A DNA stretch of 64,000 nucleotides from Escherichia coli (GTDB lineage Bacteria > Pseudomonadota > Gammaproteobacteria > Enterobacterales > Enterobacteriaceae). Numbering within the stretch: position 1 is the first letter of the stretch; every line of letters begins with the position of its first letter. The notes below the pieces were generated by a model. That model had not been told where the DNA came from, did no database searches, and saw nothing but the letters and a program-made list of their open reading frames with translations. Positions 40,742 to 52,193 of this stretch are shown one piece after another. The stretch lies in NCBI RefSeq assembly GCF_001677475.2, contig NZ_CP015229.1. One strand, 5' to 3'. A program made the position numbers and the translations under genes.

Positions 40742-40906
40742 GCCTTATCTCCACCTCTTCGCGTCATTACGCGATATTCATTAAAGTGGCGAAAGCATGA
40801 CAGCAATCACAAAAAAATGAAAATAACAAAAAGAGAAAACACTTTTGCCATTTTGCTAACAAACAGGAAAGAGAGGCGAGGGAGAACGCGCTCCCTCGAG
40901 AGGAAA

Positions 40907-40996
40907 TCAGTGCAGCGCGGCAGTCAAACCCACGGCCACGATCAAACCGAGGACGATAATCGTTGTTACCAGTGAAAATTTAAGGTCGGTGCTCAT
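40907..40996 (-). CDS. ynhF: Small hydrophobic protein (29 aa)
   Basis: Reverse complement encodes MSTDLKFSLVTTIIVLGLIVAVGLTAALH; followed on minus strand by hairpin CGAGGGAG-N6-CTCCCTCG (40877-40898). Confidence 0.6.
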   Translation of the reverse strand: MSTDLKFSLVTTIIVLGLIVAVGLTAALH

Positions 40997-41234
40997 CAAG
41001 TTTTCTCCTTTTTTATTACCACACAAAAAGTGATATTACGCATTTTTACACACTGTGATGAAAAAATCTCCCGTCATTTATAATGATAAGTGTTTTTACC
41101 ACTTCCCCTTTTCGTCAAGATCGGCCAAAATTCCACGCTTACACTATTTGCGTACTGGCCATTGACCCCTTCCTGACGCTCCGTGTCGTTTTTCCGGCGT
41201 ACCGCAACACTTTTGTTGTGCGTAAGGTGTGTAA

Positions 41235-41250
41235 AGGCAAACGTTTACCT
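41235..41250. promoter_or_regulatory. Putative PurR box (AGGCAAACGTTTACCT) in purR leader
   Basis: Core GCAAACGTTTAC resembles the PurR operator consensus ACGCAAACGTTTGCGT. Confidence 0.45.
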
Positions 41251-41294
41251 TGCGATTTTGCAGGAGCTGAAGTTAGGGTCTGGAGTGAAATGGA

Positions 41295-48289: not shown

Positions 48290-48324
48290 AGGCGCAACCT
48301 TCACGGGTTGCGCCTGTATTTTTA
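48290..48324. terminator. Terminator hairpin between convergent mdtK and ydhQ
   Basis: AGGCGCAACC-TTCACG-GGTTGCGCCT followed by T-run. Confidence 0.6.
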
Positions 48325-49578
48325 CGCAGGCTGGAGCGTTGCGCCAATCCCGTCTTCGTCTGGCTGTAGTTTCAGTGCGTTACACAGAGTTTGCCGACTG
48401 GCATCTGTTATCTCAACGTGTATATCACCGGTAACTTCCCCTTTCACATTGATGAAGTCAGGTGAGATTTCTTTCGCACTGGTTTGCAGGCAAATCGCTC
48501 CCTCTCCGCGCAGGCGTTTCACTTTCAGTTGCACATGCGTTGCCGCACCAGTGATCAGCCACAGTTTTCCGCCATTCAGATTGATGTTACCAACAATGAA
48601 AGTGACGCTGTCACCTTTTACCGTACTGCCGTCGAGAATCAACACACCGCCCTGCTGTACAGTAATCGTTGATTGTTGCAGCTCTGCGCCATAACCAATA
48701 ATCATTGAAGCGCCGTCCAGTAATGCAACACTCCCGGTCAGTTCAACCGGTGCGCGATCTTCCTCTACGACAAAATTTTCGTCCGCGCTGGTGGGTGACA
48801 ACAGGAGCACTGTTCCACCTTGTATTACCGCATTTTCCAGCGTACCGGCATGCACTTCAGCCCGACCACCCACATTCACGGACAGGTTTTGCGTCTTACC
48901 GGAACTGTAGAGCTGAAGGCCATCCGTCCCCAGACGATAAATGGATCCATTCTCAACAATAGTGTCAGAGTCTTCACCACCGAGATTATTCATGGTGCCA
49001 CCAGCAAGCAACGTATCACTGGCTTTCCCGGCCAGCATAAAAACGCCGCCCTGATTAATCTCACAATTGCTGGCTTCCCCACCTGGATACACCAACAATT
49101 CACCTCCTTCATCTACCACGACCGCTGAGGTTGTCCCATTGACCAACAGGCCGCCCTCTTGATCGAGAATAATTTTTTCCGCGCGATGGCCTTCCAGTAC
49201 ACGCAGGTTACCGCCATTTTCCAGTAACAAACCGCAGGCATAACCTTTATCAACGCTGAATTCACCTTCGGGATGGCGGCCATTAACCGTAGCGAGCGTA
49301 GAGAGACTAATTGCGCCTCCCTCAGACTGAACAATATCTGTGGCAATGGCACCGTCACTGACCGATAGCGTGCCATTGTTGCCGTACTGTGTGCATTTGG
49401 CGATCCCACCGGTTGCAACTTTCAACCAACCGGCCCCCGTGACCACGGTATTTTCGGCTCTTGCGCCAGCTTCAACAATTAACTCACCTTCAGTAAGTTG
49501 CGTCGCGCCAATGACCTCGCCGGTCTTAACAATTTGCACATTCCCGTCGCTCATCAAGTTTTTCGCATCAGATCCCAT
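48322..49578 (-). CDS. ydhQ: Autotransporter-adhesin-related beta-helix protein
   Basis: 418 aa; Gly/Thr/Val-rich repetitive beta-helix-like sequence; no obvious C-terminal beta-barrel translocator. Confidence 0.8.
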   Translation of the reverse strand: MGSDAKNLMSDGNVQIVKTGEVIGATQLTEGELIVEAGARAENTVVTGAGWLKVATGGIAKCTQYGNNGTLSVSDGAIATDIVQSEGGAISLSTLATVNGRHPEGEFSVDKGYACGLLLENGGNLRVLEGHRAEKIILDQEGGLLVNGTTSAVVVDEGGELLVYPGGEASNCEINQGGVFMLAGKASDTLLAGGTMNNLGGEDSDTIVENGSIYRLGTDGLQLYSSGKTQNLSVNVGGRAEVHAGTLENAVIQGGTVLLLSPTSADENFVVEEDRAPVELTGSVALLDGASMIIGYGAELQQSTITVQQGGVLILDGSTVKGDSVTFIVGNINLNGGKLWLITGAATHVQLKVKRLRGEGAICLQTSAKEISPDFINVKGEVTGDIHVEITDASRQTLCNALKLQPDEDGIGATLQPA

Positions 49579-49886
49579 GATTTATTCCTTTGCTGCATCT
49601 GTGTGCCTTTATTGCTACCTAAGTGTAAAGGCTACGGAGGATTTATCCACGACAGATTTTGAGATGGTGGCAAACAACTCTGTTTAAACTCTGATACACA
49701 GATTATTGGGTTGTGTCAGATGTAAATGCGATCCTGAATAAAAATCGCCCTTGCAAATCAACAAAATATAGCCAATTTGCTTAAAAGCTCTGCAAACGGT
49801 CGAAATACCGCAGAAAAATACGTTTTGCCTCTTGCCACCTTCCCACTCTGCCGCTAATATTCGTCCCCGTTGTCACCTACAACGTT

Positions 49887-49963
49887 GCGTTCATAGCTCA
49901 GTTGGTTAGAGCACCACCTTGACATGGTGGGGGTCGTTGGTTCGAGTCCAATTGAACGCACCA
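49887..49963 (+). tRNA. valV: tRNA-Val (anticodon GAC)
   Basis: 77-nt cloverleaf with anticodon loop CTTGACATG, T-loop GGTTCGAGTCC, encoded CCA end. Confidence 0.9.
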
Positions 49964-49967
49964 TCCT

Positions 49968-50044
49968 GCGTCCGTAGCTCAGTTGGTTAGAGCACCACCT
50001 TGACATGGTGGGGGTCGGTGGTTCGAGTCCACTCGGACGCACCA
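49968..50044 (+). tRNA. valW: tRNA-Val (anticodon GAC), tandem second copy
   Basis: 77 nt, 4-nt spacer after valV; differs from valV at a few acceptor and T-stem positions; CCA encoded. Confidence 0.9.
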
Positions 50045-50151
50045 GATTTTCTTAATCTGGTCTTCTCCTTTTTCCCTCTGTTTCTTCTCTGTATCCAATA
50101 CGTTAAAAGATTTACACTGTCTTCGTATGCGTTATCAGAAGGAGAATCGCT

Positions 50152-50457
50152 ATGGCAACTTTGTTACAACTTCATTTTGCTTTTAATGGCCCATTTGGCG
50201 ACGCAATGGCTGAGCAGCTTAAACCACTTGCTGAGTCGATTAATCAGGAACCTGGTTTTCTGTGGAAGGTATGGACAGAAAGTGAAAAGAACCACGAAGC
50301 CGGTGGGATCTACCTTTTTACTGATGAAAAAAGCGCCCTTGCCTATCTGGAAAAACATACTGCCCGACTGAAAAATCTCGGCGTTGAGGAAGTTGTCGCC
50401 AAAGTTTTCGATGTCAATGAGCCACTTAGTCAAATCAATCAGGCAAAACTCGCCTGA
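50152..50457 (+). CDS. ydhR: Small dimeric alpha/beta-barrel (monooxygenase-like) protein
   Basis: 101-aa ORF. Confidence 0.8.
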
Positions 50458-50582
50458 CAGAATTTAATCAAGGGCGGTTAGCGCCCTTTTTATCCCTGTC
50501 TGAAATTTCTCAAATTCTAAAAATCTCAACCAAACTTATCTGATAACACTAAATTCGAAAGAATGCGTACAGGTAAGTAACA

Positions 50583-52193
50583 ATGAAAAAAATTGCTATT
50601 GTGGGTGCCGGGCCTACGGGGATCTACACCTTATTCTCGCTTCTAGAGCAACAAACTCCACTTTCTATTTCTATCTTCGAGCAGGCTGACGAGGCCGGTG
50701 TCGGGATGCCATACAGTGATGAGGAAAACTCAAAAATGATGCTGGCAAATATTGCCAGTATTGAAATACCGCCGATTTATTGTTCGTATCTCGAATGGCT
50801 ACAAAAGCAAGAAGCCAGCCATCTCCAGCGTTATGGCGTTAAAAAAGAAACCTTGCACGATCGTCAGTTTTTACCGCGAATTCTGCTGGGCGAATATTTC
50901 CGCGATCAATTTTTACGATTAGTAGACCAGGCACGACAGCAAAAATTTGCAGTGGCTGTTTATGAATCATGTCAGGTTACCGATCTGCAAATTACAAATG
51001 CTGGCGTCATGCTCGCTACAAATCAGGATTTACCCAGCGAGACGTTTGATTTAGCGGTGATTGCCACGGGTCACGTCTGGCCTGATGAAGAAGAAGCAAC
51101 CAGAACGTATTTTCCCAGCCCGTGGTCAGGCCTGATGGAAGCAAAGGTCGATGCGTGTAACGTGGGTATTATGGGAACATCCTTGAGCGGACTGGATGCG
51201 GCAATGGCAGTGGCTATTCAGCATGGTTCGTTCATTGAAGATGATAAACAACACGTCGTTTTTCACCGCGATAACGCAAGTGAAAAGCTAAATATTACGT
51301 TAATGTCGCGCACGGGTATTTTACCCGAAGCCGATTTCTATTGCCCTATTCCCTACGAGCCCTTACACATCGTCACTGATCAGGCATTAAATGCTGAGAT
51401 TCAAAAAGGCGAATATGGCCTTTTGGATCGGGTATTTAGATTGATAGTAGAGGAAATCAAATTTGCTGATCCAGACTGGAGCCAACGCATAGCCTTAGAA
51501 AGCCTGAATGTCGATTCCTTTGCTCAAGCCTGGTTTGCCGAGCGCAAACAACGCGACCCATTCGACTGGGCAGAAAAAAATCTCCAGGAAGTCGAACGCA
51601 ATAAACGAGAAAAACATACTGTTCCCTGGCGTTATGTCATTCTGCGCCTGCATGAAGCCGTACAGGAAATTGTTCCTCATCTGAATGAACACGACCATAA
51701 ACGGTTCAGTAAAGGCCTTGCCCGGGTTTTCATCGATAATTATGCGGCAATCCCTTCAGAGTCTATTCGTCGACTACTGGCCTTACGTGAAGCGGGAATC
51801 ATTCATATTCTCGCCCTCGGTGAAGACTACGAAATGGAAATTAATGAGTCGCGCACCGTCCTGAAAACGGAAGACAATAGCTACTCGTTTGACGTTTTTA
51901 TTGATGCCCGCGGGCAGCGTCCGCTTAAAGTGAAAGATATTCCTTTCCCTGGACTACGCGAACAATTACAGAAAACAGGGGATGAAATCCCTGATGTTGG
52001 CGAAGATTATACGTTACAGCAACCCGAAGAAATTCGTGGGCGCGTAGCGTTCGGCGCGTTGCCCTGGTTGATGCACGACCAGCCATTTGTACAGGGACTT
52101 ACGGCATGTGCAGAAATTGGTGAGGCGATGGCTCAGGCGGTCGTAAAGCCTGCATCCCGTGCTCGTCGGCGTCTTTCGTTTAATCAAATGTAA
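50583..52193 (+). CDS. ydhS: FAD/NAD(P)-binding protein of unknown function
   Basis: 536-aa ORF; N-terminal dinucleotide-binding motif IAIVGAGPTG. Confidence 0.8.
   Translation: MKKIAIVGAGPTGIYTLFSLLEQQTPLSISIFEQADEAGVGMPYSDEENSKMMLANIASIEIPPIYCSYLEWLQKQEASHLQRYGVKKETLHDRQFLPRILLGEYFRDQFLRLVDQARQQKFAVAVYESCQVTDLQITNAGVMLATNQDLPSETFDLAVIATGHVWPDEEEATRTYFPSPWSGLMEAKVDACNVGIMGTSLSGLDAAMAVAIQHGSFIEDDKQHVVFHRDNASEKLNITLMSRTGILPEADFYCPIPYEPLHIVTDQALNAEIQKGEYGLLDRVFRLIVEEIKFADPDWSQRIALESLNVDSFAQAWFAERKQRDPFDWAEKNLQEVERNKREKHTVPWRYVILRLHEAVQEIVPHLNEHDHKRFSKGLARVFIDNYAAIPSESIRRLLALREAGIIHILALGEDYEMEINESRTVLKTEDNSYSFDVFIDARGQRPLKVKDIPFPGLREQLQKTGDEIPDVGEDYTLQQPEEIRGRVAFGALPWLMHDQPFVQGLTACAEIGEAMAQAVVKPASRARRRLSFNQM

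Follow-up and report, generated by a model that had tools for sequence, protein, structure and literature searches.

Two tRNA genes with the same anticodon stand side by side in a 64-kb window of Escherichia coli DNA (by the window we mean the whole stretch that was analysed), similar to one another without being identical. What is this pair, and why do its two members differ where they do? The first part of the question has a straightforward answer. ARAGORN finds two tRNA genes in the entire window, both of them tRNA-Val(GAC), each 77 nt long, with a spacer of 4 nt between them (Table 1). Both give full-length matches to the Rfam model RF00005 (model positions 1-71 of 71), scoring 70.1 bits for valV and 69.6 bits for valW at a gathering score of 29. 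ARAGORN places the anticodon gac at position 35, GAC occupying positions 34-36, and in both copies the sequence itself displays the D-loop GG, the T loop GTTCGAGTC and a genome-encoded 3' CCA directly preceded by the discriminator A73. The bases A35, C36 and A73 are the main determinants for ValRS.

Comparison with K-12 MG1655 settles the names. The two genes are base-for-base its valV and valW, and the match takes in the spacer (TCCT), the core promoter, leader and trailer as well as the beginning of ydhR, with 0 differences over positions 49819-50318 and with the K-12 gene order (ydhQ / valV valW / ydhR ydhS). Seventeen positions do differ from MG1655 within the 1.3 kb surrounding the pair, none of them in the operon core, and because of these flanking differences we assign the window to another E. 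coli lineage than K-12; among complete E. coli genomes, the best match of the 1.3-kb region reaches 99.2%. Overall, we conclude, with a probability of about 0.97, that the pair is the valV-valW operon of E. coli, that is, two head-to-tail Val2 (GAC) tRNA genes reading GUC and GUU. No evidence speaks against this identification, and the gene names, coordinates, lengths and spacer given in a preliminary description of the locus stand, with ARAGORN, Rfam and the K-12 identity in agreement. The pair is already known in all essentials, its sequence, promoter and processing pathway having been published; as a locus it is of small discovery value and serves as a positive control for reading the sequence alone.

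Table 1. Features of the valV-valW locus, in coordinates of the 64-kb window.
Feature	Position	Strand	Basis
ydhQ, divergent upstream neighbour, AIDA-repeat/pertactin-domain protein	48322..49578	-	ORF; Pfam AIDA, Pertactin; K-12 annotation
A/T-rich tract AGAAAAATACGTTTT, putatively UP-element-like	49812..49826	+	sequence, just upstream of -35
sigma-70 promoter: -35 TTGCCA (49832-49837), 17-nt spacer, -10 TAATAT (49855-49860)	49832..49860	+	promoter scan
GC-rich discriminator TCGTCCC	49861..49867	+	sequence; invariant in 18 loci
5' leader of the primary transcript, with 6-bp hairpin CGTTGT/ACAACG (49868-49884)	49868..49886	+	fold, published starts
valV, tRNA-Val(GAC) isodecoder U5-A68, A7-U66, U50-A64	49887..49963	+	ARAGORN, Rfam, K-12 identity
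spacer TCCT	49964..49967	+	sequence; published as UCCU
valW, tRNA-Val(GAC) isodecoder C5-G68, G7-C66, G50-C64	49968..50044	+	ARAGORN, Rfam, K-12 identity
8-bp hairpin ACCAGATT-TTCTT-AATCTGGT, 5' arm opening with A73-C74-C75-A76 of valW	50041..50061	+	scan, fold
trailer, candidate Rho-loading region (18 C, 6 G, 73% pyrimidine)	50062..50125	+	composition
ydhR, downstream neighbour, putative mono-oxygenase	50152..50457	+	Pfam ydhR family; K-12 annotation

The second part of the question concerns the divergence between the copies. The two genes differ at six positions only (linear 5, 7, 51, 65, 67 and 69), four of them in the acceptor stem and two in the T stem, and these six bases make up three pairs, each of which is Watson-Crick in both copies: 5:68 and 7:66 in the acceptor stem (U-A and A-U in valV, C-G and G-C in valW) and 50:64 in the T stem (U-A in valV, G-C in valW). 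The loops, the D arm, the anticodon arm, the variable loop, the discriminator A73 and the CCA are unchanged. When the sequences are laid out as a cloverleaf with an acceptor stem of 7 bp, a D stem of 4 bp, a D loop of 9 nt, an anticodon stem of 5 bp, a variable loop of 5 nt and a T stem of 5 bp, all 21 pairs are standard in valV and likewise in valW. The chance that six random positions of 77 would fall on three complete pairs of 21 equals 1330/237,093,780, or approximately 6e-6, and this figure does not yet require the bases to be complementary. Such a pattern is not chance. Thus, the earlier claim that the divergence is confined to the stems and looks compensatory is exact, the changes forming three fully compensated pairs of the acceptor and T stems.

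One might suppose from the 8% difference between the copies, which is the only support for such a view, that one of them is a decaying duplicate or pseudogene. We regard this as next to impossible: both genes score about 70 bits with every stem pair standard, each is nearly invariant in 5425 complete E. coli genomes and recurs across several genera, and both RNA species have been reported in the literature, where Val2A and Val2B count as distinct tRNAs, each with acp3U47 (PMC6895100), and were resolved on 2-D gels (PMC7568582). Pseudogene status is thus refuted for either copy by the scores, the intact stems, the conservation and the reported RNAs.

A survey of relatives bears on the same point from another side. 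Loci were retrieved from one genome per species by an exact match to the invariant 35-mer of linear positions 11-45, which brought together at least 120 loci of Gamma- and Betaproteobacteria, Salmonella and Klebsiella being absent from them, and at least 164 Val(GAC) genes from the listed loci, falling into 48 distinct 77-nt sequences. Over these 48 relatives, 99.4% of the cells of the cloverleaf were paired, and this value fell to 30-50% when the 3' partners were slid along the sequence. Changes on both sides were recorded for 12 of the 21 pairs, including all 7 of the acceptor stem and 4 of the 5 of the T stem, while the D and anticodon arms do not vary among the relatives, which is at least partly a matter of construction, the retrieval 35-mer spanning linear 11-45. 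The folding of both copies by ARAGORN and RF00005, which the preliminary description had proposed to check together with covariation, is hence joined by covariation among relatives in support of the cloverleaf.

The distribution of the two sequence types among these relatives is uneven. The exact valW sequence occurs in most Enterobacterales genera among the matches listed, and it is the sole type listed for Photorhabdus, Rahnella, Serratia and Rosenbergiella; close variants of it are found in Arsenophonus, Moellerella and Yersinia. Judging by the matches listed, the valW type is the general Enterobacterales form. The exact valV type, among the same matches, is limited to E. coli, two species of Citrobacter, four Enterobacter loci and Superficieibacter, where it always occupies the first position of the array, followed by spacers of 4-17 nt. 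E. albertii keeps the order of V then W, its valV being of the valV type with one change in the D loop. A related second class of copies, characterized by U5-A68 together with U7-A66 and A50-U64 or with other T-stem variants, is present in Acerihabitans, Pantoea and Yersinia aldovae. Overall, the distribution suggests that the heterogeneous pair is old and stable in Enterobacteriaceae sensu stricto. Arrays of several other families are internally identical.

Within E. coli, the pair hardly varies. Single-gene queries returned an identical valV in 5407 and an identical valW in 5348 of the 5425 complete genomes. An apparent class of 2043 genomes with 97.5% identity proved to be an artefact, in which, for a self-similar query, matches on and off the diagonal had been joined from two pieces; SE15, which belongs to this apparent class, carries a pair identical to that of the window. 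Exceptions are few. The strain Q65 has a single hybrid gene made of the 5' part of valV and the 3' part of valW, with a deletion of 81 nt, and this gene combines U5.G68 with the mismatch A7.C66; it reflects a genuine unequal crossover or else a collapse of the assembly. In CEC96047, the end of an IS3-family element abuts the sequence "CCA TCCT", so that valV is lost and valW alone is left. Two single changes in valW were each met in one genome, C2T giving U2.G71 and A70T giving a U.U mismatch. These sequences show what a loss of compensation leads to, and such forms are rare. The hybrid gene of E. coli Q65, with U5.G68 and A7.C66 in one molecule, would also illustrate a possible incompatibility of valV and valW in recombination.

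Taken together, these observations induce us to propose that the divergence represents compensated stem evolution following an old tandem duplication. Any partial gene conversion or unequal crossing-over between the copies would produce mismatched stems, and this may slow their homogenisation, while both copies, whose equivalence we assume, would do the same job. If so, the pair offers a natural and clean case of compensated stem evolution in adjacent paralogues, stable over several genera.

It is tempting to go further and to suppose that valV and valW are not equivalent and are kept apart by selection, for instance for stability, modification, processing kinetics, sensitivity to toxins or phage factors, or some extra-translational role. 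Several facts would fit: identical V-then-W pairs persist in Citrobacter, Enterobacter and Superficieibacter despite spacers of 4-17 nt and a 43-nt identical core; E. albertii has also kept the pair, with a valV differing at one D-loop base; the tandem copies within each array of Photorhabdus, Rahnella, Serratia and Moellerella are mutually identical, and the two copies of Arsenophonus differ by one loop base each; and a second class of U5-A68 copies has its place in Pantoea, Acerihabitans and Yersinia aldovae. However, the differences are all pair-for-pair swaps within helices, leaving the loops, the anticodon, A73 and the CCA the same, and both forms would also be maintained, with no functional difference between them, if purifying selection removed mismatched partial converts. 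In published work, moreover, valV and valW are treated as one isotype, valine isotype 2 or Val2, for which an aminoacylation of 38-47% was reported in control strains (PMC4176162). We consider selection for non-equivalence unlikely.

A broader formulation is that the compensated pairs are non-neutral, with recombination incompatibility, functional distinctness or both leading to the retention of two Val(GAC) isodecoders in Escherichia, Citrobacter, Enterobacter and Superficieibacter. This, too, seems improbable, and a functional difference, if one existed, could lie in stability, in the order of RNase P processing or in evading a toxin that targets tRNA. Were it true, the distinctness of the isodecoders or the incompatibility in recombination would be of moderate interest. 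Our preferred reading remains that of two presumably equivalent genes separated by compensated stem changes.

We now turn to the expression of the pair. The preliminary description had noted a promoter-like region with a GC-rich discriminator, and the promoter scan bears this out, TTGCCA, 17 nt and TAATAT being followed by TCGTCCC. Among 18 Enterobacterales loci, the arrangement is kept as CTTGCCA, CTTGCAA, CTTGCAT or CTTGCCT, then 17 nt, then TAATATTCGTCCC, the length of the promoter spacer being fixed and its sequence free. The tract AGAAAAATACGTTTT presumably resembles the UP element of rrnB P1, and a similar tract of A-runs and T-runs is present at the same place, just upstream of the -35 hexamer, in other genera. 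By analogy with other stable-RNA promoters, the discriminator may have a role in stringent or growth-rate control, and together with the upstream A/T tract it would probably tie expression to growth rate. The hexamers of the window agree with the scores published for the sigma-70 promoter of valV valW, in which the -35 matches the consensus at 5/6 positions and the -10 at 4/6 (PMC2190699).

By primer extension, transcription starts at two positions, 18 and 19 nt upstream of mature valV (PMC2190699); the place where they must fall contains a run of C at 49865-49868. The leader that follows begins with CGYTGTC, and the 3' arm of its hairpin changes to match the 5' arm across genera, as in E. cloacae (GTTGTC/GACAAC) and Pantoea (GCTGTC/GACAGC). 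We take the leader hairpin to be a conserved feature of the precursor.

The fate of the transcript was established by Mohanty and Kushner, who demonstrated that RNase P alone separates the two tRNAs of the dicistronic precursor, RNase E taking no part in this and having no site in the UCCU spacer, and that ydhR is not co-transcribed with valV valW; they proposed that PNPase and RNase II remove the 3' trailer, although most transcripts lose it even in the pnp rnb mutant (PMC2190699). Later papers of the same laboratory confirmed the dependence on RNase P (PMC4176162; PMC7049720). According to these experiments, one sigma-70 promoter gives a single dicistronic precursor, starting about 18-19 nt upstream of valV, in which RNase P cuts the 5' end of each tRNA as the sole endonuclease needed across UCCU. 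The trimming of the trailer by the exonucleases PNPase and RNase II and the stop of transcription before ydhR would complete the process, these last steps following a published proposal from indirect evidence.

How transcription stops is a less settled matter. The authors who studied the transcript saw no predicted structure downstream of valW and inferred Rho-dependent termination (PMC2190699). The preliminary description had put a hairpin at 50045-50075; a hairpin does exist, but the real stem-loop occupies 50041-50061 and makes use of the ACCA of the tRNA. Its stability is modest, with a folding energy of -9.4 kcal/mol and, for the 70-nt region, a z-score of -2.8, and in a fold of the whole precursor the hairpin stacks on the acceptor stem of valW, which is left undisturbed. 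The published statement that there is no structure is thus not quite right, while the Rho dependence concluded from it may still hold. The hairpin covaries in four related species: its counterparts, made of other sequence, follow the pair in E. albertii (with one G.U pair), in C. werkmanii (GCACCATATCA/TGATGTGGTGC, -18.1 kcal/mol, then CUUUUCU), in Citrobacter sp. FP75 and in E. cloacae (GCACCATTTCAG/CTGAAATGGTGC, -16.9 kcal/mol). The architecture of the hairpin is kept although the downstream genes differ among those species.

Such evidence makes it possible to think of the hairpin as a weak intrinsic terminator, or as an element for processing or protection of the 3' end, in which case termination would not be due solely to Rho. 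Its stability for its size, its direct stacking on the acceptor stem in the precursor fold and its reconstruction from other sequence in four further species argue for this. On the other side, the 8-bp stem has just 3 G-C pairs, the tail, CUUCUCCUUU, offers no clean U-run (CUUCUCCUUUUU), the site passes a loose terminator scan only, and the count of terminator-like sites (2, against 1.1 +/- 1.0 in shuffled sequences) is no higher than in shuffles. Among 19 Enterobacterales loci, 14 other genera have no hairpin after the last Val(GAC) gene and keep the pyrimidine-rich trailer, which, being also poor in G, was found in 19/19 of these loci; the downstream gene ydhR was of no use for collecting the trailers of other genera, since it follows the pair only in Escherichia. 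The composition of the trailer is as would be expected of a Rho-loading site, and the inference of Rho dependence made by those who worked with the transcript itself (PMC2190699) counts in the same direction. We hold an intrinsic or processing role of the hairpin only tentatively, as somewhat the weaker of the possibilities, and Rho may still be the agent. All the same, a conserved hairpin that uses the CCA end of the tRNA was not considered in the papers that assigned Rho-dependent termination.

The same part of the locus carries a match that could easily mislead. On the minus strand, positions 50006-50168 match the Rfam family HPnc0260 (RF02194) over its full length with 112.1 bits, well beyond the gathering score of 59, and the span overlaps the 3' half of valW and the start of ydhR; E. 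albertii yields 103.5 bits. Taken at face value, these scores would mean that an antisense small RNA is encoded here opposite the tRNA. We find this very unlikely. A partial match on valV reaches 36.6 bits in the 3' third of the model from the complement of the T arm and acceptor of the tRNA, so that some 37 bits are earned from tRNA complement alone, and matches of 61-69 bits, barely over the threshold, follow the final Val(GAC) gene of the array in five genera whose downstream DNA is unrelated, namely Citrobacter, Enterobacter, Superficieibacter, Moellerella and Rahnella. The promoter scan found no minus-strand promoter-like site in 49500-50600, and the RNA on which HPnc0260 was founded is, in H. 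pylori, repressed by NikR and transcribed divergently from ureA (PMC5385501), a context that is absent here. Most likely, the match is a model artefact and an annotation trap, even if the higher scores of Escherichia (112 and 103 bits versus 61-69) are not fully explained. What the model picks up is evidently the complement of Val(GAC) genes together with their pyrimidine-rich trailers, and annotation can be misled by it. Plastid-ycf2 and YrlA gave matches at the tRNAs that stayed below threshold and correspond to tRNA-like or tRNA-complement sequence. An ORF of 123 aa at 50000-50371, out of frame over valW and ydhR, is presumably mechanical.

Genes for tRNAs can be integration sites, and the question arises whether this pair is one, with ydhR, ydhQ or both as the remains of a tRNA-targeted island. 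The start of ydhR lies 107 nt past valW, and ydhS and ydhT come next. That ydhR follows directly, as first described, is true of the window; among the loci sampled, however, ydhR and ydhQ occur in Escherichia only, and it is this absence of both genes from the syntenic loci of other genera that lends the idea of an island some colour. E. cloacae has the order mdtK-valV-valW-ydhS, the flanks of Citrobacter differ again, without integrases, and two E. coli strains carry IS3-family insertions, next to the pair or within it. Yet besides valV and valW themselves, the 64-kb window holds no second copy of the 3' end of valW (25 nt, up to three mismatches allowed), Pfam found no integrase-like domain in the scanned flanking ORFs, and around the locus there is no informative repeat beyond the tRNA pair, no compositional step and an unremarkable GC content. 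Over 1.3 kb, 5388 of the 5425 complete E. coli genomes are colinear and 37 are not; in the one non-colinear genome that was looked at, the cause is an IS, an IS3-family element lying 40 nt past valW. The earlier statement that no island is integrated here, with its suggestion to compare other strains, is borne out by both the window and these genomes, and we judge an island origin of the flanking genes extremely unlikely.

The succession of ribE, mdtK and the Val(GAC) array is kept in Escherichia, Serratia, Yersinia, Photorhabdus and Moellerella, and even in Shewanella and Pseudoalteromonas, and this appears to be the ancestral context. Since ydhQ and ydhR are confined to Escherichia among the loci sampled and neither an integrase nor an att-type repeat accompanies them, small genes have been gained beside the pair by some way other than a recognisable tRNA-targeted island.

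Finally, we would like to compare valV-valW with systems of the same kind. By published annotation, the genes repeated within operons of the valU, lysT, leuQ and secG type do not differ from one another; valV and valW do, by three pairs. In other respects these operons are similar: valU-valX-valY-lysV, lysT, leuQ-leuP-leuV as well as secG-leuU likewise have very short pyrimidine spacers (CUUC, CC and CUC, against UCCU in valV-valW), which are not cut by RNase E, and rely on RNase P for separation (PMC4176162). They part company at the 3' end, as the valU and lysT operons possess clear Rho-independent terminators, removed first by RNase P (PMC4176162), while the authors found none for valV valW (PMC2190699). 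Related, too, are the Val(GAC) arrays that follow mdtK in other Enterobacterales, which share with the E. coli pair the chromosomal position (ribE-mdtK-tRNA array), the promoter core TAATATTCGTCCC, the leader hairpin and the valW-type sequence. They differ from it in having one to three copies with spacers of 3-104 nt, the copies being identical in several genera. Where a second class of copy is present, it is not that of E. coli: Acerihabitans, the third gene of Yersinia aldovae and Pantoea stewartii carry U7-A66 and A50-U64 where valV has A7-U66 and U50-A64, and the second-class copy of Pantoea sp. IMH has other T-stem variants, again unlike valV.

The tRNA pair is flanked by ydhQ and ydhR in Escherichia only. 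The gene order in E. cloacae is mdtK-valV-valW-ydhS, while in Citrobacter the flanks are instead a GGDEF protein, a class-I aaRS-like gene, a glycosyltransferase and an ABC transporter. The synteny ribE-mdtK-Val(GAC) reaches as far as Shewanella and Pseudoalteromonas.

Features of the window; L-numbers denote loci from other genomes used for comparison
Feature	Position	Strand	Remarks
ydhQ	48322-49578		flank of the tRNA pair; compared with L056, L030, L090
ydhR	50152-50457		flank of the tRNA pair; compared with L056, L030, L090
Leader hairpin	49868-49884	+	6 bp, CGTTGT/ACAACG; very start of the valV-valW leader
Hairpin 3' of valW	50041-50061	+	counterparts in L030, L037, L056, L090
HPnc0260 (RF02194) match	50006-50168	-	Rfam, full-length, 112 bits
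STnc550 'sRNA' match	40904-41294	-	Rfam, whole model, 396 bits

Across 18 Enterobacterales loci, the 5' arm of the leader hairpin (CGYTGTC) is kept, with the 3' arm covarying. The 5' arm of the hairpin following valW is the tRNA's own ACCA (or GCACCA), and the hairpin recurs, rebuilt from other sequence, in E. albertii, two Citrobacter species and E. cloacae. The region 3' of valW was published as being without structure (PMC2190699).

Rare variants of the locus occur within E. coli itself. Strain Q65 (locus L004, 1502-1578) has one hybrid gene, valV in its 5' part and valW in its 3' part, which carries U5.G68 and the mismatch A7.C66 and is the sole Val(GAC) gene of that genome; it arose by unequal crossing-over or else reflects a collapsed assembly. 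Two independent IS3-family insertions were also found at the locus (L002 12726-13939 and L126 1-300). The insertion in WCHEC050613 lies 40 nt 3' of valW, and that in CEC96047 has its end at the final bases of valV, so that valW is left alone and without its native promoter.

In many species of Pseudomonas, the Val(GAC) genes contain an acceptor-stem mismatch, A5.C68, which is conserved between species (loci L016, L032, L046, L051, L054, L058, L059, L075, L080, L094, L095, L105, L114, L117 and L124); the 18 copies that have it share one identical sequence. In Rahnella bruchi (locus L068, 4053-4339), there are three valW-type copies, all identical, separated by two likewise identical spacers of 28 nt, and such identity of genes and spacers suggests a recent tandem amplification.

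Finally, we would like to comment on the two Rfam matches. The HPnc0260 match in the window is antisense to the 3' half of valW, to the trailer and to the start codon of ydhR, and the complement of the tRNA supplies about one third of its score. In other genera, matches near threshold again lie 3' of Val(GAC) genes, where the trailers are unrelated. The match is probably a model artefact, which accounts only partly for the high score in Escherichia. The STnc550 match, situated between ydhP and purR, spans cydH (ynhF), which encodes a small protein, together with the region upstream of that gene (coordinates carried over from the annotated locus L002); therefore, this 'sRNA' looks like a small-ORF mRNA.
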